From NCBI GenBank assembly GCA_024181965.1, contig BQXS01012471.1, positions 1 through 32,491 on the forward strand: 32,491 bases of DNA. Direction: 5' to 3'. The stretch comes from Aduncisulcus paluster (Eukaryota). Of this stretch, positions 493 through 32,491 are shown piece by piece. A program made the translations under genes and the position numbers. Each line of letters begins with the position of its first letter. The first letter of the stretch is position 1. Under the pieces are notes generated by a model. The model saw nothing but the letters and a program-made list of their open reading frames with translations. It was not told where the DNA came from and ran no database searches.

Positions 493-1578
493 TTATTTCC
501 ATGGAAGTAGAGATAGTCGTTCAGCTGCAATAATTTCTTCTGGCATAGTAAATACAAGGGAGTTGATCCAGAAATCTCGACTATTCTTTTTACACCACTG
601 CCCTTTCCCTTCAATCTCACATAACACAACATTATCCAAATCAATAGGAAGGAAGTGCCATTCATATTCATGCTTAGGTCTTGTGAATTCATACTTCTTG
701 AATGTCTTCTTATCATCACAATCAGTGAAAGTGAAGAGAAGAAATGGGGAACTGTAATCATCCACACAGATATAAGCACCTTTCATTGGACTAGGTGACG
801 GGAAAGGAATGGAAAGATAGGATAAACAAACACCACATTCTCCTTTTAACATTTCTTGTGCATCTAAACTCCTATCATACTCCTGATCATACTTCTCAGA
901 TTCCTTACTAAACGCATCATTCTTGCACTTAACAATTGAAAATGAAGGATCTACAAGCTTTGGATCATCTCGTGGAATGGGAATAGAAAATTCATCTCCT
1001 TCCTTAACAAACTCTGATTTCACAACTGGAGCTCCAGACCATAGTTTCTCTCTGGCTTCACGAGACAAGGTTTCTTCAGAAGATTCTTCCCGAATGAAAA
1101 CAGGAGATTGGATACAAAAATAGTCTTGCTCTCTTCCTTTCCCTGTAATCTCACACAAAACAACATCAGGGAGATCAACAGGAAGGAAATACCAATGTTC
1201 ACCTTCAAAATCAGGAAATTCATATTTCCTGGCTGTTTTCTCACCTTTTGAAGATGTGAGAGTGAAGATAAGATATTCTGGTAGATTCCAATAACCATAC
1301 AGACAGATATAAGCCCCTTTCATTTGAGAAGATGAAGAGAAAGGAATGGAGATATGGGTAAAAAATCCATCATTATACTCTCCTCTCATCATATCTTGGG
1401 CTTCAACACTTCGATCGTACTCTACTTCATCTATGTCACACGTTCCATCTATAGCTGTGATAGTTGGGATCTCTGAACTCTTAATATTCGGGGCATCTCT
1501 AGGAATTGGATAGCATTCGTAATTTCCTTCATGAATAAACTCAGGTTTTACAATTTGTATATCGGTTGAAGAACTCAT
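493..1578 (-). CDS. Unknown two-domain (internal repeat) family protein, copy 1, 361 aa
   Basis: ATG at 1578 (MSSSTDIQ) to TAA at 493-495. Two similar halves (HISIPF..MKGAYIC..KKYEF..WxFLPxDL..VVLCEIxGKG). Paralogous to 10229-11320 and 29270-30367. The track's extension to 1875 is AT-rich and not open in copy 2. Confidence 0.85.
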   Translation of the reverse strand: MSSSTDIQIVKPEFIHEGNYECYPIPRDAPNIKSSEIPTITAIDGTCDIDEVEYDRSVEAQDMMRGEYNDGFFTHISIPFSSSSQMKGAYICLYGYWNLPEYLIFTLTSSKGEKTARKYEFPDFEGEHWYFLPVDLPDVVLCEITGKGREQDYFCIQSPVFIREESSEETLSREAREKLWSGAPVVKSEFVKEGDEFSIPIPRDDPKLVDPSFSIVKCKNDAFSKESEKYDQEYDRSLDAQEMLKGECGVCLSYLSIPFPSPSPMKGAYICVDDYSSPFLLFTFTDCDDKKTFKKYEFTRPKHEYEWHFLPIDLDNVVLCEIEGKGQWCKKNSRDFWINSLVFTMPEEIIAAERLSLLPWK

Positions 1579-9228: not shown

Positions 9229-9591
9229 TCACCAGTCACCCTGAGGAACAAGATCATCCAACATCTTTTGCAATTGATCCGTAGCTTCGGTCAAATCCAT
9301 ACGAGATGGCCAAGAAAGCTTGCCATTCTCATTACCGAAACGAAACGAAATGAAAGTAGGCATTGACCTAACTCCCAAAAAATCTGCAACCAATTCTTCG
9401 GCAGATTCTTCATCAACATCCACATAACAAAAAATAATGTCCGAATTGACAGGATTTTGACCAAATGAATGATAAACAGGAGCAATTCTTTTACATGGAC
9501 CTGACCATTCGGCATACGCGTAGATAATGACATGATGATGCTCTGCAATTAAGGATTTGAATTCTTCAAGGGTTTTGATGTATTTGGACAT
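9229..9591 (-). CDS. Thioredoxin-like protein with SxxC active site, 120 aa
   Basis: YAEWSGPCKRIAP, FCYVDVDE, GVRSMPTF (cis-Pro loop); canonical WCGPC is WSGPC. Confidence 0.88.
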   Translation of the reverse strand: MSKYIKTLEEFKSLIAEHHHVIIYAYAEWSGPCKRIAPVYHSFGQNPVNSDIIFCYVDVDEESAEELVADFLGVRSMPTFISFRFGNENGKLSWPSRMDLTEATDQLQKMLDDLVPQGDW

Positions 9592-11320: not shown

Positions 11321-11707
11321 TGACAATGGAAAAAAGTCGGGATCTTAAAAAAATTTAAAACAAAAATTTCATTACAATACAGTCAATATAATTGCATGAC
11401 ATCGCATAAAATATGTCTTAATGCGCATTTAATGAAATGTGTGACATACAGTAAATCTTGAATTGCTTGCAACGAAGGAAAAGCAGAAGACGAAAACACA
11501 AAGTCGCGAATGACAACCTCAGGAAGCAATATCATACAATATATAAATAAATTTATATGGTCATTTTTCTTTCTATCATATATTGCATGCCATCCTTGTG
11601 AGTCCACTCCTGACACGAAATCGTTTCATAACTTCGACATTTGTTTACATAGTGGATTATAAAGTGACAAAATATGCTGATAAGTTGCAGTTGAAATCTA
11701 TGAATAT
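11321..11707. repeat. 5' flank of copy 2 (shared with copy 1), containing putative 5'-UTR intron 11344-11449
   Basis: Near-identical to 1579-1966; minus-strand GTATGT at 11449 and ttttttaAG at 11344. Confidence 0.85.
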
Positions 11708-12009: not shown

Positions 12010-15000
12010 CTACATTACTTGGCAAGCAGATTCCACCCTACTATCCCAACCAGGTTTCCCGTAGACCTCACGATGGGAAGTAATAATATCCCCAATTGTC
12101 GGAATATTCCACCCTTCACCAATTGCCGGAAGAAGGGATTTAATAGACTGAACCTTCTCACGAGCAGTGTGAACACTCATTCTTCTTTTATGGTTCTTTA
12201 GAGTCAAAGCAGTAAAAATATTCTTGAAACAAGAATGCAAAGGTTTATATTTACCTCCATCGATCGTCAATAGGGACTTGAATAAAGGCGATTCTAATAA
12301 CATCCCTGTAATTTTTCTTGACAGCATGCTTGCGAGTCTTTCTATAAACAAATGACCGTTCTTGAAACCAATATCTGATATTTCTTCAATAAACGGTGGT
12401 TTCCCAAGGAACAAAGACAGAATAGACATCCCCAAGGAATGTGCATCACTGATCTGTGAATGCTCACCAAATCTAATCGCTTCATAAGCATTATACACAA
12501 GAGTACCACAAACATCTCTCTCGCTTCCCTCTTCCTCTTCAACGGTTTCTTCTTCTTCTTCTCTTTCAAGATCACGATCACGAATCCTCTCTCTCTGAAC
12601 TCGGGACGATTTTGATCGTTGTTGCTGCTTCAATGCGCGTCTTGTTGATGTCGTTTCTAAAAAGGTCTGTGAAATACTGGAAGTTGTCACAGAATGTTGG
12701 ATTTGTGCAAGGCCGAGATCTCCAAGAACAATCGAGCATGTCTGGCTTTTTGTGTCAACACGAACAAGGAAGTTCTCAGGTTTGATATCTCGATGTACAA
12801 GACTCTTCTTTGCCTCGAACACATCATCAAGACACTCGATCATTCCAACACAAAGAGCTGCCACTTTCACAGGGTTCAGTGACATGGGATCAAATTCTCC
12901 AACAGAACTTGTTGAATCATCGGAAACATATGAAGATTCATCATCTCTCTCATCATCATTTGAGTATTTTGAAGAAGTTGATGTAACCCCACTCTCATAC
13001 TTGCCATCAGCACACCAACTCTTTGCAAACGAACTCACACTGCCTCCAATACAAAACTCCATGATAAATCCATATACACCCTGGAAATCCCCATCGAGAA
13101 GGTCAAAAATATACATTGGACGAGGGATACGGTTGAAACATTTCGGATTCATGAACAATTTGGACTGGAATCTGAACTCCTTGCGACATTTCTTAATTAT
13201 ACTATTATCAGCTTTGCCTAACATCCTTTTCAGTATGCAAGGTTCAGCAACTCCAGGTATGCGAACAAGAAGAACCTCACCAAAAGCTCCTGTTCCAATA
13301 ATACATAAGGATTTCATACCGAATGAGGAAGTCAGAGTCATAGAGTCAGCAATGGGATGGTGTTTCTCACGTTTCAATGAAATTACAGCAGAATCAAGGG
13401 GAATTCCAGCGTGGACAACCTTGAAGGCAGTGGGATCACCAGAAGAAGAAAGAGACGCTTGATGACGTGTTGCATCATCTGTGGAAGACTCAGATGAATG
13501 GGAGTGTTTCTCTTTCTTCTCTTTCTTCTGTTTCTTTTGTGGTTTTGCTTCCGTTCTCTTGTGGAGTATTTGTCTGACTCTATCCGAACGTTTATGGTCA
13601 TCAAAGTAAGGAATTCCATCACCTTCTTTCTTTGTGGGACTGCTCATCGTCTTCTTTCGACCTTGAACAGGTGCCGATTTCATTTGAACTGCACGTTTAC
13701 CCATTCCTCTTTTGACTGCAGGCTTTTTTGTTTGATGATATGTCTTTCCAACCATTAGTTGTTGCTTCGTTGTCTTTCGCTGTTTGTTCTTTCTCATAGA
13801 TCGTTCCATATGAGAAGTCATAGGAATGATTTCTTCCTCTTCCTCTTCCTCTTCCTCTTCGCCTTTTTCATGATCAACATAAAACTCTTCTTCATCTTGT
13901 TCCATGTCTTCTTGTATGGATTGAATCACATTCTTTCTGTTCTTCTCTTTCTTCTCCAATCTCCTTTCCTCTTTCTTTCTCCATGTTTCGCGTTGGTCTC
14001 TTGTACCCTTCGAATAAGAACGAGAGTGAGCGATGCAAAAACTTACAAAGAATATAACAAAACAGAGTATTCCAATTATCAAAAAAGTCCAGAGAACAGA
14101 AGGAACATAGTAAAACCAAAGAGCAACGAACACACACACAATGGCCACAGAGAGAAACTGGAATACACGTAAAGGGTTATCTCCGTCAACATCTTCGAGA
14201 TTAGACATAGCATCTCCATAAGAATATCCAACCACGGCTTTGTCAATATCTTCCCCATTGCCATCAAGATAATGTCTCTGCTTATTCTGTGGTAGTTGTT
14301 GGGTGGCTGAACTGTCAGTAACAAAATCACCATATGGCTCCCAACCAGATACCATCCAAAAAAGACACACAATACCCAAGCAGATTGGAATCAAATATGG
14401 GAACAACCACGTATCTGATGAAGCCCAAATAATGGTAGGAATTACTATGAGAGGGAGCCATATGATACCACACACCAATGTAAGGGGACCCTCGAATATC
14501 CTCTCACCGAGAAGGTCAACAATGCTATCAATCGACACATATCCAGTATTAATGGCATCAATTTCATGATCTTCATCAGAGTCCTGCTCCTCTTCTCCGT
14601 CATGGTGAGTTTTGTTCCTTGTAATATGTGTTGTTACTCTCACATTTTGATTGGAGGTGTCCATATAGTGGCCAACACACGATATAATCGAGAAGAATAA
14701 TCCCATGAGAAATATACCAAAACAATTCCAGCTGAGATCTGGATGGGTATTAATAAAACGAACAAAAATACCCATTCCAACACCGGTAATCACAGTGAAA
14801 ACGAAGACAACGAATGAATTGAATAATAATTTGGAGCAATCTTTGGCTTTCACACGTGATTGGCACATTTGAACAACAATAATAAAGAAACCATCGGCCA
14901 ACAGGGATAAAAACACGAGGAAAAAGAAGAATTGGACTGGCTCTTTATAATTATGAATCATAAACAACCCAAATGAAGCCACAGATGCAAATACTGAGAT

Positions 15001-16714
15001 AATTATCATTGATATCTTCGGGTGAACACCTAACAAGCTCACAATAATGACCCAGGAAAGGACAACGAAGAAGAAAATCCCTCCAATTATAACTGAAAGT
15101 GTCCATATAGTGGCCAACACACGATATAATCGAGAAGAATAATCCCATGAGAAATATACCAAAACAATTCCAGCTGAGATCTGGATGGGTATTAATAAAA
15201 CGAACAAAAATACCCATTCCAACACCGGTAATCACAGTGAAAACGAAGACAACGAATGAATTGAATAATAATTTGGAGCAATCTTTGGCTTTCACACGTG
15301 ATTGGCACATTTGAACAACAATAATAAAGAAACCATCGGCCAACAGGGATAAAAACACGAGGAAAAAGAAGAATTGGACTGGCTCTTTATAATTATGAAT
15401 CATAAACAACCCAAATGAAGCCACAGATGCAAATACTGAGATAATTATCATTGATATCTTCGGGTGAACACCTAACAAGCTCACAATAATGACCCAGGAA
15501 AGGACAACGAAGAAGAAAATCCCTCCAATTATAACTGAAAGTAAGTCAGAGCGGTTGAGACCAACTATAAGAAGCAAAAAGCTTGGAATACCGATTGATA
15601 TAGCATTTGAAACAAGGAATTTCGTATAGTTCACATCAAAATCAGCTCCCCATGTGAGAATAAATGAAGATATAAGGAGACCAAGTGGAATGGTGAAATA
15701 AATGGGATGGAAGAAGAATCCAAATGACATGGAACTTCCACAGGCAAGAAAAGGAGCTATACAAAAGAAGAATTGGACTGGCTCTTTATAATTATGAATC
15801 ATAAACAACCCAAATGAAGCCACAGATGCAAATACTGAGATAATTATCATTGATATCTTCGGGTGAACACCTAACAAGCTCACAATAATGACCCAGGAAA
15901 GGACAACGAAGAAGAAAATCCCTCCAATTATAACTGAAAGTAAGTCAGAGCGGTTGAGACCAACTATAAGAAGCAAAAAGCTTGGAATACCGATTGATAT
16001 AGCATTTGAAACAAGGAATTTCGTATAGTTCACATCAAAATCAGCTCCCCATGTGAGAATAAATGAAGATATAAGGAGACCAAGTGGAATGGTGAAATAA
16101 ATGGGATGGAAGAAGAATCCAAATGACATGGAACTTCCACAGGCAAGAAAAGGAGCTATACCGAGAAATAAACAGAAATAAACACCATAATCATAAATTT
16201 TAACCACTTTATAAAACGCAATAACAGAATAAATCGTGTTTATGGCACCAATTACAAGTCCAATAATACTTGTAATCTTTAAGTCAGTATCAATGGATGT
16301 ACTCGAGGTAATGAGAAGAGAAAGCCAAATGATCAATGTACTGCCGATAAATGCTCCTATAGCTCCGGAATAAAAGAAAAAGACGTTCTTGGGGTCAGTT
16401 GAAGGATTTAACTGCGGGAAACATGGAGACAGCACAAATTTCCAAAATAAGAAAAAAATTGCGAACCAAGCAAGACAACTTGCATTAAGCCATATCATTG
16501 CAGTTGGAGTAACGTCAATAACGGATTCTAACTCAGTTTCAAGAGAGGAGAAAAAGATCTGTTGATGATCATTGATCAACTCAGTTTTTGCCGCTGACAC
16601 GGATGAAGATAAACATAAAACAAGGATAAAAACGCATAATAATGCTTTCCATGATTTAAACCGTTTAAGATTAGGAAATAAAGTTGAACTCGAAAAATGG
16701 GTTGATAAATGCAT
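12010..16714 (-). CDS. Multipass membrane protein with C-terminal Ser/Thr kinase; split into two ORFs by a 442-bp duplication (about 1287 aa once duplications are collapsed)
   Basis: Signal-peptide-like N-terminus from 16714, many hydrophobic helices, charged linker, kinase motifs IGTGAFGEV, ILKRM, KEF, HRDIKPEN, DLGLA, GTLVYNAYE. 4705-442=4263 and 4263-399=3864 nt are both multiples of 3. Confidence 0.8.
14657..15540. repeat. Exact tandem duplication, 2 x 442 bp (14657-15098, 15099-15540), frameshifting
   Basis: Both units start gtgtccatatagtggcc and end ccaattataactgaaa. Confidence 0.92.
15364..16161. repeat. Exact tandem duplication, 2 x 399 bp (15364-15762, 15763-16161), in frame
   Basis: Both units start aaaagaagaattggactgg and end aggagctatac; 133-aa repeat in the translation. 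Confidence 0.92.
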
Positions 16715-28840: not shown

Positions 28841-29269
28841 ACATATTGCATCGCTTTCCGAGAACTTGATATTTTTGATTGCAAGCAAAAGCAAGTGAAA
28901 ATGAACTGAAAGGCAAGTATACGGATAGAAATGACAATAAAATATTTCTTTATAATCGTATAGCATTGAAATCATTCATAAATGTTTGTTAACTTTTCTA
29001 TCTTGTCTATTAAAGGTTGTATGTTCAACAAATTTTGGACAACATCTTTTCCGGCGGTAAAAACAAATTGTATGTTTAATATATGTCACATCTTTTATTA
29101 AACGATCATTGAGAAATATTTTAATCAATGTCTTCAAATTATACCCACTATATTATGCTGTTTGGTCGTTTCTTGTTCATTTTTGTCTTTTTCTCGGACT
29201 GTTCTATTTGAAATTCGCAATTATTCTGCTTGTTTTAATTTTTTTAGATAATATTCTATCTCTATTCAA

Positions 29270-30367
29270 ATGAGTTTATCCACAGATGCTGTAATTCAAA
29301 CTGTGGAACCTGAGATTATTCATGAAGGAAATGAGTGGTGCTGTCCAATTCCTAGAGATTCCCCCAATATTAAGAGTTCAGAGTTTCCAAGTATCAAAGC
29401 AATCAATGAAACCAAGGAAGAAGATGACGAAGAGTATGATCAAAGTGTCGAAGCACAAGATATGATGAAAGGAGAGGTTAATAATGGTCACTTTACCCAT
29501 ATATCCATTCCTTTCTCCTCATCTTCTCAAATGAAAGGAGCTTTTATATGTCTGAATGGTTTGATAAGCACTCCATCACATCTTATCTTCACCCTTACAT
29601 CTTCAAAGGGTGATAAAACTTCCAAAAAATACGAATTTTATAAATTTGAGGATTGGTACTGGTATTTCCTTCCTGTTGATCTCCCTGATGTTGTTTTGTG
29701 TGAGATTACAGGGAAAGGAAGACAGCAAGAGTATTTTTGTATCCGCTCCCTTGTTTTCATTCGGGAAGAATCTTATGAAGAAATCAAAGCTCGTGAAGCC
29801 AGAGAGAAACTATGGTCTGAAACTCCAGTTGTGAAAGCAGAGTTTGTTAAGGAAGGAGATGAAGAATCTGATGGTAGGGATTCTATTCCCATTACAGGTG
29901 ATGATCCAAAGCTTGTAGATCCTTCATTCTCAATGGCTAAGTGCAAGAATGATGCGTATAGTAAGGAATCTAAGGAGTATGATAAGAGTTCAGAAGCACA
30001 AAGAATGTTAAAATGGGAAGATTATGTATTTTTATCCCATCTTTCCATTCCTTTTCCATTACCTAGTCCTATGAAAGGTGCTTATATCTGTGTGAATGAT
30101 GATTACAGTTCCCCATTTCTTCTCTTCACTTTCACTGATTGTGATGGCAAGAAGACATTCAAGAAGTATGAATTCACAAGACCTAAACATAAATATGAAT
30201 GGCACTTCCTTCCTATTGATTTGATGAATGTTGTATTGTGTGAGATTGAAGGGAAAGGGCAGTGGAATGAAAAGAAAGGTCGAGATTTCTGTATCGACTC
30301 CCTTGTATTTACTATGCCAGAAGAAATTATTGCAGCTGAACGACTATCTCTACTTCCATGGAAATAA
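29270..30367 (+). CDS. Unknown two-domain family protein, copy 3, 365 aa
   Basis: Colinear paralogue of copies 1 and 2, ends IIAAERLSLLPWK*; tttttttAG 22 nt before the ATG. Confidence 0.87.
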   Translation: MSLSTDAVIQTVEPEIIHEGNEWCCPIPRDSPNIKSSEFPSIKAINETKEEDDEEYDQSVEAQDMMKGEVNNGHFTHISIPFSSSSQMKGAFICLNGLISTPSHLIFTLTSSKGDKTSKKYEFYKFEDWYWYFLPVDLPDVVLCEITGKGRQQEYFCIRSLVFIREESYEEIKAREAREKLWSETPVVKAEFVKEGDEESDGRDSIPITGDDPKLVDPSFSMAKCKNDAYSKESKEYDKSSEAQRMLKWEDYVFLSHLSIPFPLPSPMKGAYICVNDDYSSPFLLFTFTDCDGKKTFKKYEFTRPKHKYEWHFLPIDLMNVVLCEIEGKGQWNEKKGRDFCIDSLVFTMPEEIIAAERLSLLPWK

Positions 30368-30805
30368 CCAGTTGTTTGGCAAATGTCTGATATGAATTAC
30401 ATCATAATGACAGATGCAGATGTTGATTGGAGATGTTAGAGTTGTTGAAGGAGACATGTGATAGAGTTGCTTTGACTGTTGAGAATGTACATGAGATTCT
30501 GAATGATTCAACGTTCAANNNNNNNNNNNNNNNNNNNNGGAAAGGGCAGTGGAATGAAAAGAAAGGTCGAGATTTCTGTATCGACTCCCTTGTATTTACT
30601 ATGCCAGAAGAAATTATTGCAGCTGAACGACTATCTCTACTTCCATGGAAATAACCAGTTGTTTGGCAAATGTCTGATATGAATTACATCATAATGACAG
30701 ATGCAGATGTTGATTGGAGATGTTAGAGTTGTTGAAGGAGACATGTGATAGAGTTGCTTTGACTGTTGAGAATGTACATGAGATTCTGAATGATTCAACG
30801 TTCAA
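30252..30805. repeat. Duplicated sequence either side of a 20-N gap (30519-30538); probable scaffolding overlap
   Basis: 30252-30518 is repeated from 30539. Confidence 0.85.
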
Positions 30806-31451: not shown

Positions 31452-32491
31452 TTAAAAACTCCTATCCCTACAACTTTTCTCGATGAATCTGTTTTTCGAA
31501 TTCACGCGGATATGCAGAGGCTGTGGGAAACAGCTTTGCTGCGAGGGTATAGAATACAACCTACATTGACGAAAGAACTCTTTCTTCATTCGTTCCACAC
31601 GACGCATATTCCATTTATGATCGGAGTCGTTCTTCATGCATTTCAGAGCACACAAGATAGAAGGTGAAGATGACTCAGGATAATCAATACGAGCAAGGAT
31701 AACATCACCAAATCCACCACTTCCAATGATACAAAGTGGAGTTATGTCAGAATAAGATGTCAAAATCTTAGGATTGGGAGTAATAGTCAAGGCTGGTATA
31801 TATTTACCAGCCCAGATTAATCCCCAATGGCAACTCCAATATCCCTCTTCTTTCTGCTTCTTGCTTTTCGAGTTCTTCGAGTTTTTCTCTCTTCCTCTTC
31901 TCTTCTTCAAACATTATTCGGTATTGTTCAGTTTTCTTTTCCTCCAATTTTCTTTTTCTTTCCACTTTTATCCTTTCCAATTCTTCCTTCTTCTTCTTTT
32001 GCTCCAATTTTCTTTTTCTTTCAGCTTCTTGCTTTTCCAACTCTTCCTTCTTCTTCTTCTTTTCCTCCATTTTCCTTCTTATTGCTGTTTCCATCTTTTC
32101 GAGTTTTTCTCTCTTCTTCTTTTCTTCTTCAAACATTATTCGGTATTGTTCCGTTTTCTTTTCCTCCAATTTTCTTTCAGCTTCTAGCCTTTCCAATTCT
32201 TCTCTATTCTTCTTCTCATCAATACTTGTTTCAGATTTTCGATGACTCAAACTATTAATCCATCCTTCCGTAAGCACAACACTTGGAATCGAATCTTCAT
32301 CAACAATGCTTCCAGTATCACCTTTATGCTTGGCAAGCTGAGCCTTCACAATATCGTCAATGGATGGACATTTCCACCCTTCTCCAATCTTTGGAAGTAA
32401 ACGTTTGATGGATTGAACTTTCTCACAGGCTTCGTGAACACTCATACGTTCATCGATATCCAGCTTTGTCAATCCTTGGAACACTTCGTTC
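31452..32491 (-). pseudogene. 3' part of a tandem-kinase gene: end of kinase 1, coiled-coil repeats, frameshift, truncated N-lobe of kinase 2 (runs off the window)
   Basis: RMSVHEACEKVQSIKRLLPKIGEGW matches the tail of the 12010 kinase. The second frame has PLCIIGSGGFGDV, CALKCMK and KEF but stops before HRD. Confidence 0.7.
31850..32215 (-). repeat. Coding E/K/R-rich repeats, 222-bp period
   Basis: LEEKKTEQYRIMFEEEKxKREKLE occurs twice (aaacattattcggtattgtt at 31909 and 32131). Confidence 0.8.

Follow-up and report, generated by a model that had tools for sequence, protein, structure and literature searches.

The gene at positions 29,270 to 30,367 of contig BQXS01012471.1 from Aduncisulcus paluster, a flagellate of the Fornicata, raises a question about the organization of protein diversity: is it one member of a repertoire of binding proteins, in which a conserved scaffold carries loops that change from copy to copy? 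The contig – 32,491 nt, analysed in its entirety and referred to below as the window – has a G+C content of ~36% and open reading frames (ORFs) that lie far apart, among them housekeeping-type eukaryotic ORFs for a TCP-1 chaperonin, an HMG-CoA reductase, a cytidine deaminase and a protein kinase. A first-pass annotation, made from the letters of the sequence, had described the gene as a two-domain protein belonging to a candidate diversified recognition system. Our analysis places it in a mass-produced family built from a DOC-like unit, with hypervariable loops in both copies of the unit and a coupling to kinases that appear to be cytosolic; so far the family is confined to this one free-living fornicate. 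Neither the fold nor the concept of adaptor families that evolve fast is new.

The window contains three copies of the gene, all of them intact, as the annotation had stated:

29270..30367, forward strand: focal gene c3, encoding an intact two-unit protein of 365 aa (stop included)
493..1578, reverse strand: paralogue c1, intact, 361 aa
10229..11320, reverse strand: paralogue c2, intact, 363 aa; the ORF reaches 11326 by way of an upstream TTG

For c3, in-frame extension upstream of 29252 is impossible. The three proteins share a common framework (76–78% identity), and the four variable patches recorded by the first-pass annotation – EGN[YECY/RYCC/EWCC]P, CL[YGYWNLPEY/FGGWDLPEY/NGLISTPSH]L, EF[PDFEGEH/TESYGYR/YKFEDWY]WY and GR[EQD/EEE/QQE]YF – are present exactly as given, the differences among copies being clustered, not scattered. 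c3 is made of two copies of a repeat unit of ~178 residues, arranged as follows:

29297..29824, forward strand: unit 1 (residues 10–185), an N-terminal arm, a galactose-binding-like jelly roll and a C-terminal helix
29825..30364, forward strand: unit 2 (residues 186–365), a second copy of the repeat unit, 47% identical to unit 1

An AlphaFold2 model of the focal protein, built from an alignment of 76 sequences (predicted local distance difference test, pLDDT, 93.5; predicted template modelling score, pTM, 0.87), consists of two similar halves, in each of which a beta-sandwich is preceded by a short N-terminal arm and followed by a helix; both halves are assigned by Foldseek and VIA-align to the galactose-binding-domain-like fold (Foldseek probability 1.00). 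Unit 1 is delimited by a match to the hidden Markov model (HMM) of the unit at ORF residues 16–191 and by structural matches over model residues 14–167 and 25–168. When both c3 units and one distant family member were compared with the superfamily, more than 50 solved members were matched at Z scores of 9–13.5 (113–149 residues aligned; root-mean-square deviation, rmsd, 2.2–3.6). The match to yeast APC10/Doc1 (1gqp_A; Z 13.2, rmsd 3.0, 149 aligned) spans model residues 186–351, that is, unit 2. The tandem CBM32 pair of Clostridium perfringens ZmpB (7jnb) was matched at Z 13.5 over 280 residues, with an rmsd of 11.8 over the pair, and the orientation of the two units therefore differs from that in tandem CBM32. 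Further matches to the focal model were HECTD3 DOC (Z 11.6), AlyQ CBM32 (11.3), IFT25 (11.1), HERC2 DOC (10.9), muskelin (10.8), PITHD1 (10.6) and the PITH domain of TXNL1 (9.8).

The distant member, a single-unit protein modelled from its own alignment (pLDDT 93.6), gave the same picture: the top Foldseek matches were APC10/DOC (1jhj, E 5.8e-5) and HECTD3, and VIA-align returned CBM32 (Z 13.2), HECTD3 DOC (11.9) and APC10 (11.6). Over the two models, DOC matches other than yeast APC10 range from 10.9–11.1 (HERC2) through 11.3 (1jhj) to 11.6–11.9 (HECTD3), and CBM32 matches from 11.3–11.4 (7d2a) to 13.2 for 7jnb when one unit is compared. Because Z scores within one unit of each other are ties, placement is at the level of the superfamily and in no single family. 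The repeat unit is thus predicted to be a galactose-binding-domain-like jelly roll with APC10/DOC and CBM32 as its nearest relatives, in agreement with the beta-sandwich of galactose-binding/DOC type proposed at first pass (1gqp_A Z 13.2, HECTD3 DOC 11.6–11.9, CBM32 11.3–13.5).

At the level of sequence these relationships leave no trace in the profile databases. Pfam gave no match for c1, c2 or c3, and at E≤10 none of the 76 members matched the DOC/APC10, the F5_F8_type_C or CBM32, or the PITH profile; nothing relevant was returned, the scattered weak families including none that occurred in more than 7 of the 76. Run against PDB sequences at E≤10, the family profile yielded just two rows, both chance matches (E 1.4 and 2). 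This agrees with the first-pass description of the family as unknown. ESM Atlas scores for the family (0.84 or lower) are leads only, and the CBM32/F5-8 type C clusters that it lists stand at just 0.80–0.81, below the Atlas's own trust level.

A fold of this kind could also belong to lectins of the CBM32/discoidin type, directed at sugars of bacterial prey or at glycosylated cell components, with loops that tune glycan specificity. CBM32 structures are among the best matches (7jnb and 7d2a), and aromatic residues are typical of sugar-binding sites. For a discoidin lectin of Dictyostelium, a cytosolic role is reported (PMC9523886). Nevertheless, the proteins are without a signal peptide or membrane segment, and so cytosolic; the F5_F8_type_C and CBM32 profiles match none of the 76 members, and no glycoside hydrolase domain occurs among the 99 relatives scanned for partner domains (see below). 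DOC domains, which are peptide binders, match equally well, and we consider the lectin explanation very unlikely.

The first-pass annotation expected many further copies, and these exist. A search of 5.8 billion proteins returned 162 relatives at E≤1e-3, with lengths of 200–639 aa. Among the 120 matches listed, 118 are named and all of these are from A. paluster, the remaining two being the window's own proteins; two distant members identified by name are from A. paluster too, and the species range given here is that of these named matches. The 76-member profile, run against 1.84 billion cluster representatives, detected 165 clusters (50% identity), 109 of them at E≤1e-30; in a single protein as many as 11 stretches were matched. 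A separate profile built from 17 of the distant hits recovered only its own first member. A single-unit HMM found 608 units in 264 of 266 collected proteins – a set containing a few duplicates of window genes – at 1–11 per protein, and the form with two units is the commonest (154 proteins). The draft genome of A. paluster comprises 29.4 Mb and 15,316 predicted proteins (PMC9933649), of which the family accounts for at least 162, a noticeable fraction for a small proteome, longer forms not counted. The family goes unmentioned in the available text of the genome announcement (PMC9933649), and no publication on it was found among the listed papers on Aduncisulcus, supplements not covered. A scan of metagenome contigs produced a single candidate locus (L001), which was rejected: what its ORF has in common with the family is limited to a pattern of nine residues, a chance match. 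Three members (P0006, P0007 and P0085) carry the UniRef label 'NudC domain-containing protein'. Pfam scans of the 76 members, a set that does not include P0085, returned no CS/NudC family, the fold found here differs from the CS domain, and the label looks like an automatic misnomer.

Variability is mostly a property of the loops. Across 76 paralogues of 335–400 aa, 45 of 365 sites have an entropy of at least 2.2 bits. In unit 1 these are residues 21–23, 54–55, 61, 64, 70–74, 96–100, 127–130 and 152–159; in unit 2, residues 198–201, 236, 242, 251–254, 276–279, 308, 331–334 and 339–343. The principal patches, in the coordinates of c3, are:

29330..29338, forward strand: hypervariable arm patch of unit 1, residues 21–23 (entropy 2.8–3.7 bits)
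29477..29491, forward strand: hypervariable segment of unit 1 that precedes the first core strand, residues 70–74
29555..29569, forward strand: hypervariable loop of unit 1, residues 96–100, of varying length
29648..29659, forward strand: hypervariable loop of unit 1, residues 127–130
29723..29746, forward strand: hypervariable loop of unit 1, residues 152–159
29861..29872, forward strand: hypervariable arm patch of unit 2, residues 198–201
30020..30031, forward strand: hypervariable segment of unit 2, residues 251–254, homologous to 70–74
30095..30106, forward strand: hypervariable loop of unit 2, residues 276–279, homologous to 96–100
30260..30298, forward strand: hypervariable loop of unit 2, residues 331–343, homologous to 152–159

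The entropy profiles of the two units are correlated (Spearman 0.63, p 7e-20). Since the hypervariable loops occupy homologous positions in both units across the 76 paralogues, the proposed pairing of one variable with one constant domain does not hold. The accompanying statement that domain 2 is much more constant was overstated: mean entropy is 0.95 bits in unit 1 against 0.85 bits in unit 2, and among the window copies the proportion of non-synonymous differences is 0.14–0.17 over residues 1–165 against 0.08–0.12 over residues 237–365.

Variable and sequence-conserved loops alternate along the chain. Variation in length is confined to the variable segments: residues 95–103 span 5–18 residues, and the segment 196–206 measures 6 or 11 residues in most paralogues, while each of the four loops between the variable loops has a single length in all 76 sequences. 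If strands each cross the sandwich once then alternate loops share one end, and in the model the variable loops would all lie at that end. CBM32 and discoidin domains have their binding sites in the loops of one sandwich end.

Composition at the variable sites departs from the neutral (base-composition) expectation. Tryptophan (3.9x), glutamate (3.6x), aspartate (3.5x) and tyrosine (2.3x) are enriched, as are glycine, lysine and cysteine; leucine, isoleucine, valine, threonine and proline are depleted to 0.2–0.3x. Loops rich in Y, W, F, D and E had been described, and this is right for W, Y, D and E but not for F, which stands at 0.8x. Mutagenesis by a retroelement of the diversity-generating type was considered and is rejected: variable sites often carry E, K or W, and no particular base is favoured among the changes.

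Selection was assessed from the ratio (omega) of non-synonymous (dN) to synonymous (dS) divergence by the method of Nei and Gojobori, in pairwise comparisons of c1, c2 and c3; 46 hypervariable codons were defined on 73 paralogues from outside the window and then scored on the three window copies. At these independently defined codons 43–50 of the 50–55 differences are non-synonymous, which bears out the annotation's description of the patches as mostly non-synonymous. For the three pairs, dN at the 46 codons is 0.67, 0.53 and 0.62, against dS values of 0.22, 0.21 and 0.31 in the remaining 319: the loops change faster than the synonymous sites of the scaffold. Between c1 and c2 the local omega reaches 10.5 (50 of 51 changes non-synonymous, binomial P 0.008). 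At 236 conserved codons omega is 0.15–0.19, and the scaffold is thus under purifying selection. In the window copies dS itself is higher in unit 1 (0.23–0.56) than in unit 2 (0.13–0.20), so that the extra divergence of unit 1 is due in part to ancestry and not to amino-acid selection alone.

These values also bear on the possibility of a structural or scaffolding role for the unit – as a decoration of the elaborate fornicate cytoskeleton, for example – with loops that are merely unconstrained and a copy number set by dosage or drift. Whole-gene omega lies at 0.45–0.67 in the three pairs, below 1; the local omega is not significantly above 1 in two of them; the variable sites are all in predicted loops or at exposed helix positions; and Giardia, a relative, has large families of repeat-domain kinases that decorate the cytoskeleton. 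Unconstrained loops, however, do not sit easily with a composition so far from neutral (W 3.9x, Y 2.3x, aliphatics 0.3x), nor with a dN at variable sites that is 2–3 times the framework dS in all three pairs, and with an omega of 10.5 in one. Moreover, units 1 and 2 vary at equivalent loops, and the intervening loops change in neither sequence nor length. We judge this explanation unlikely.

The three copies are mosaics, and exchange of segments between paralogues shapes the pattern of differences. Informative sites divide 81/85/54 among the three possible groupings and are intermixed along the gene. Near 30291 there is a breakpoint (reached by 0 of 2,000 permutations), past which all 22 informative sites group c1 with c3. 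A 329-nt block upstream of c1 (1630–1958) and of c2 (11371–11699) differs at 10 positions (97% identity) compared with 56 of 357 third positions (16%) in the coding sequences of the same two copies (Fisher p 8e-9); c3 is without this block, identity there being ~45%. The 3' flanks of c1 and c3 differ at 1 position in 151. In its 5' flank c1 therefore resembles c2, and in its last 76 coding bases and 3' flank it resembles c3: c1 is a chimera. The variable patches may represent old, maintained diversity as much as new change; under either origin, diversity is kept in the loops. The upstream block also holds a reading frame ('MILLPEVVIRDF..QAIQDLL') that corresponds to the 5' exon in the public models P0062 and P0007.

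A further line of evidence comes from the proteins in which the unit occurs. Among 99 longer or distant relatives scanned, 36 have a Pkinase domain (7/39, 13/36 and 16/24), and in all 36 the units are N-terminal to the kinase, one protein having units after the kinase as well. The linker between units and kinase is shorter than 20 residues in 12 of the 36. Only one linker, 878 residues long, has membrane-like hydrophobicity (1.6), and the strongest hydrophobic windows of the family fall inside kinase or unit cores. Given these short linkers and the lack of a hydrophobic segment, the proteins are best described as cytosolic kinases with N-terminal unit arrays, and not as receptor kinases; a receptor-kinase topology is ruled out by the absence of a hydrophobic segment between units and kinase in 35 of 36 cases. 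No signal peptide or membrane segment was detected in the focal protein, as the annotation had it, and membrane segments are not consistent across the family, whose members, to judge from their sequences, appear to be cytosolic. The kinases are divergent (best PDB matches Aurora and CaMK at ~1e-8; for P0166, none at 1e-10). Other partners – LRR, PARP, importin-like repeats and NYD-SP28 – were found once each among the 99 relatives, and some of these single cases may be merged gene models. Cullin, HECT and APC domains were not found in any of the 99.

Two sequencing runs of one sample bear on copy number and transcription: X1, guessed to be DNA, and X2, guessed to be RNA. At a likeness of at least 80%, 10,585 contig pieces from X1 and 2,013 from X2 fall on the stretch, and 338 of the X2 pieces are at least 99% alike. 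One 278-nt X2 contig covers 29348–29625 with 1 mismatch and spans two variable loops of unit 1, which lends weak support to transcription of the focal copy or of one nearly identical to it. Word depth in X2 is 0–42 outside 29175–30439, where X1 has cover; it was not used as evidence.

Numbers of this order might indicate nothing more than a selfish or decaying repeat without cellular function, its copies propagated by a mobile element or through duplication of segments. The very high copy number (the 10,585 X1 pieces), the flanks common to copies and the existence of partial copies such as that at 30539–30805 could be so explained. Set against this, all three window copies are intact, with an omega of 0.15–0.19 at conserved sites; no transposase-like gene lies beside the window copies; the unit is built into kinases by short linkers; and a near-identical contig is present in X2, the run guessed to be RNA. 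A functionless repeat of this kind strikes us as scarcely credible.

The unit is, in our view, probably a DOC/CBM32-type binding module. According to this hypothesis, the conserved scaffold of each unit would carry four hypervariable, W/Y/D/E-rich loops of variable length that set binding specificity; arrays of units would direct kinases to a wide variety of ligands or substrates; and free two-unit proteins such as c3 would serve as soluble adaptors, competitors or regulators in the kinase-array network. Duplication and the exchange of segments among paralogues would generate the repertoire, and selection would retain or favour different amino acids in the loops. The family itself, its fold, the place and composition of the variability, the mosaicism and the kinase architecture come from the analysis; binding by the loops, the nature of whatever is bound and the relation of free to kinase-linked forms are inferred.

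Several points weigh against the binding-module hypothesis. The first-pass annotation proposed diversifying selection, but a local omega significantly above 1 is seen only for c1–c2; it is 0.77 for c1–c3 (P 0.72) and 1.5 for c2–c3 (P 0.40), neither of them significant; the DNA-level analysis comprises three copies only. Where a codon carries several differences, the Nei–Gojobori method counts too few synonymous changes. Segment exchange among the copies also confounds any comparison of loop dN with the dS measured elsewhere; the sequence in the loops may just be older. Change is tolerated in the surface loops of beta-sandwiches generally. DSSP shows residues 77–96 and 129–150 as single long strands, which weakens the argument that places the variable loops at one end, although proline-rich turns in both stretches suggest, on the model, two strands each. 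Finally, the RNA nature of X2 is a guess.

How does the family compare with known systems? With the DOC domain of APC10/Doc1, HECTD3, HERC2 and CUL7 it has the jelly-roll fold in common, at the widest coverage of the unit (the N-terminal arm included), and an intracellular location. DOC domains take part in peptide or protein recognition. The family differs in having no profile match and only 8–13% identity, in its context (kinases, thioredoxin or no partner, as opposed to ubiquitin ligases), and in the tandem arrangement, the hundreds of copies and the hypervariable loops of its units. CBM32/F5-8 type C (discoidin) domains, including the ZmpB tandem pair, share both the fold and the tandem arrangement; the orientation of the units differs, however, there is again no profile match, and the family would be cytosolic, not secreted, and has no glycosidase partner.

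Two further comparisons are by analogy. Discoidin domain receptors, Eph receptors and plant malectin-like receptor kinases also place a jelly roll, sometimes in tandem, N-terminal to a kinase, an arrangement that may be likened to that of the family (DDR1 is among the structural matches); they are, however, membrane receptors with an extracellular binding domain, whereas in the family 12 of 36 linkers are shorter than 20 residues and only one of the 36 reaches membrane-like hydrophobicity. The F-box and MATH-BTB proteins of nematodes and plants, and the TRIM B30.2 proteins of fish, offer a possible evolutionary parallel: hundreds of intracellular paralogues, a conserved scaffold and replacement changes in binding loops. 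The family differs from these in its fold and in having kinases, not ubiquitin ligases, as partners, and the evidence for selection on it comes from three copies.

The DOC/CBM32-type jelly roll is usually a single-copy part of a ubiquitin ligase or a secreted sugar binder; here it can be seen to become a mass-produced module, apparently cytosolic, with hypervariable loops and a coupling to kinases. The family further provides a concrete case for how exchange between paralogues and selection maintain diversity in the gene families of protists. If the loops do set specificity, the family would be an independent diversified binding repertoire in a deep-branching eukaryote and would, at the same time, supply a natural collection of small, stable binding proteins whose scaffold is confidently predicted. 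A bolder version of the binding-module hypothesis, which we regard as distinctly unlikely, would make this a germline-encoded repertoire of intracellular receptors, with antibody-like Y/W/D-rich loops shuffled by gene conversion, wired to kinases and complemented by free two-unit proteins, for sensing diverse ligands from non-self or from the environment, viruses, endosymbionts and prey molecules among them; if true, it would amount to an innate-immunity-like system of new architecture in a free-living protist.

A second, rarer association is with thioredoxin:

9229..9591, reverse strand: thioredoxin-like ORF of 120 aa with a WSGPC motif; it shares the strand of c2 and lies 638 nt downstream of it

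The active site of this ORF reads WSGPC instead of WCGPC, the first cysteine being missing; the thioredoxin part of P0013 keeps WCGPC. Thioredoxin occurs in 2 of the 120 listed members: P0013, an in-frame fusion, and P0062, a public model in which c2 is spliced to the ORF at 9229–9591. A predicted complex of c2 with its thioredoxin-like neighbor scored 0.05 (mark 0.34), a value that counts neither way. The association is reminiscent of TXNL1, which consists of thioredoxin plus PITH. The PITH domain (TXNL1, PITHD1) has the fold in common with the family (1xpw Z 10.6; TXNL1 9e8o 9.8–10.2; 1xoy 9.2), and the link to thioredoxin recurs in the P0013 fusion and in the ORF downstream of c2, but is rare. 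In the family the order is reversed, the units preceding thioredoxin, and the structural scores lie below those for DOC and CBM32.

Some members have termini resembling lipid anchors. An MG start is found in 23 of 240 proteins that begin with M (19 fit MGxxx[STCAG], several with a cysteine at positions 3–6), and 6 of 266 proteins have a CaaX-like C-terminus, such as ..CCCIV or ..SCTVV. The members concerned, all outside the window, are P0214, P0261, P0230, P0242, P0048, P0204 and P0197, together with P0257, P0243 and P0170; on the strength of these motifs, some members may reside on the cytosolic face of membranes. Also outside the window, P0124 (3335 aa) combines a match to the PARP catalytic domain (E 4e-11) with eight units and a kinase domain, and could be a real multi-enzyme protein or the product of merged gene models.

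When the unit HMM was run over all other ORFs of the window, including the kinase gene at 12010–15225, no unit was found, and the sole addition was a 3' fragment of c3, placed at 30427–30651 by the unit profile and at 30541–30651 by tblastn. The fragment belongs to a tandem duplication of 267 nt that covers the last 116 coding bases of c3 plus 3' flank:

30539..30805, forward strand: exact 267-nt tandem copy of 30252–30518, containing the fragment for the last 37 residues of c3 (30541–30651)

Unequal crossing-over or an assembly effect could account for the duplication. The 3' flank of c1 (239–608) is 98% like the second copy of the duplicated stretch. Upstream of c1 there is another tandem duplication, of ~230 nt and 99–100% identical (1834–1975 / 2065–2206 and 1974–2044 / 2203–2273).

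The kinase gene of the window (12010–16714, reverse strand) has its Pkinase match at the C-terminus and no family unit was found in it; its upstream part contains tandem repeats of 442 and 399 nt (14639–16062) that are 98–100% identical. A stretch of 96 nt from the 3' end of this gene is 72% like 32350–32445, which lies in a second ORF, at the window edge. Near the same end, within overlapping ORFs, a pyrimidine-rich repeat of 60 nt occurs four times (31934–32209), the copies being 68–100% alike.

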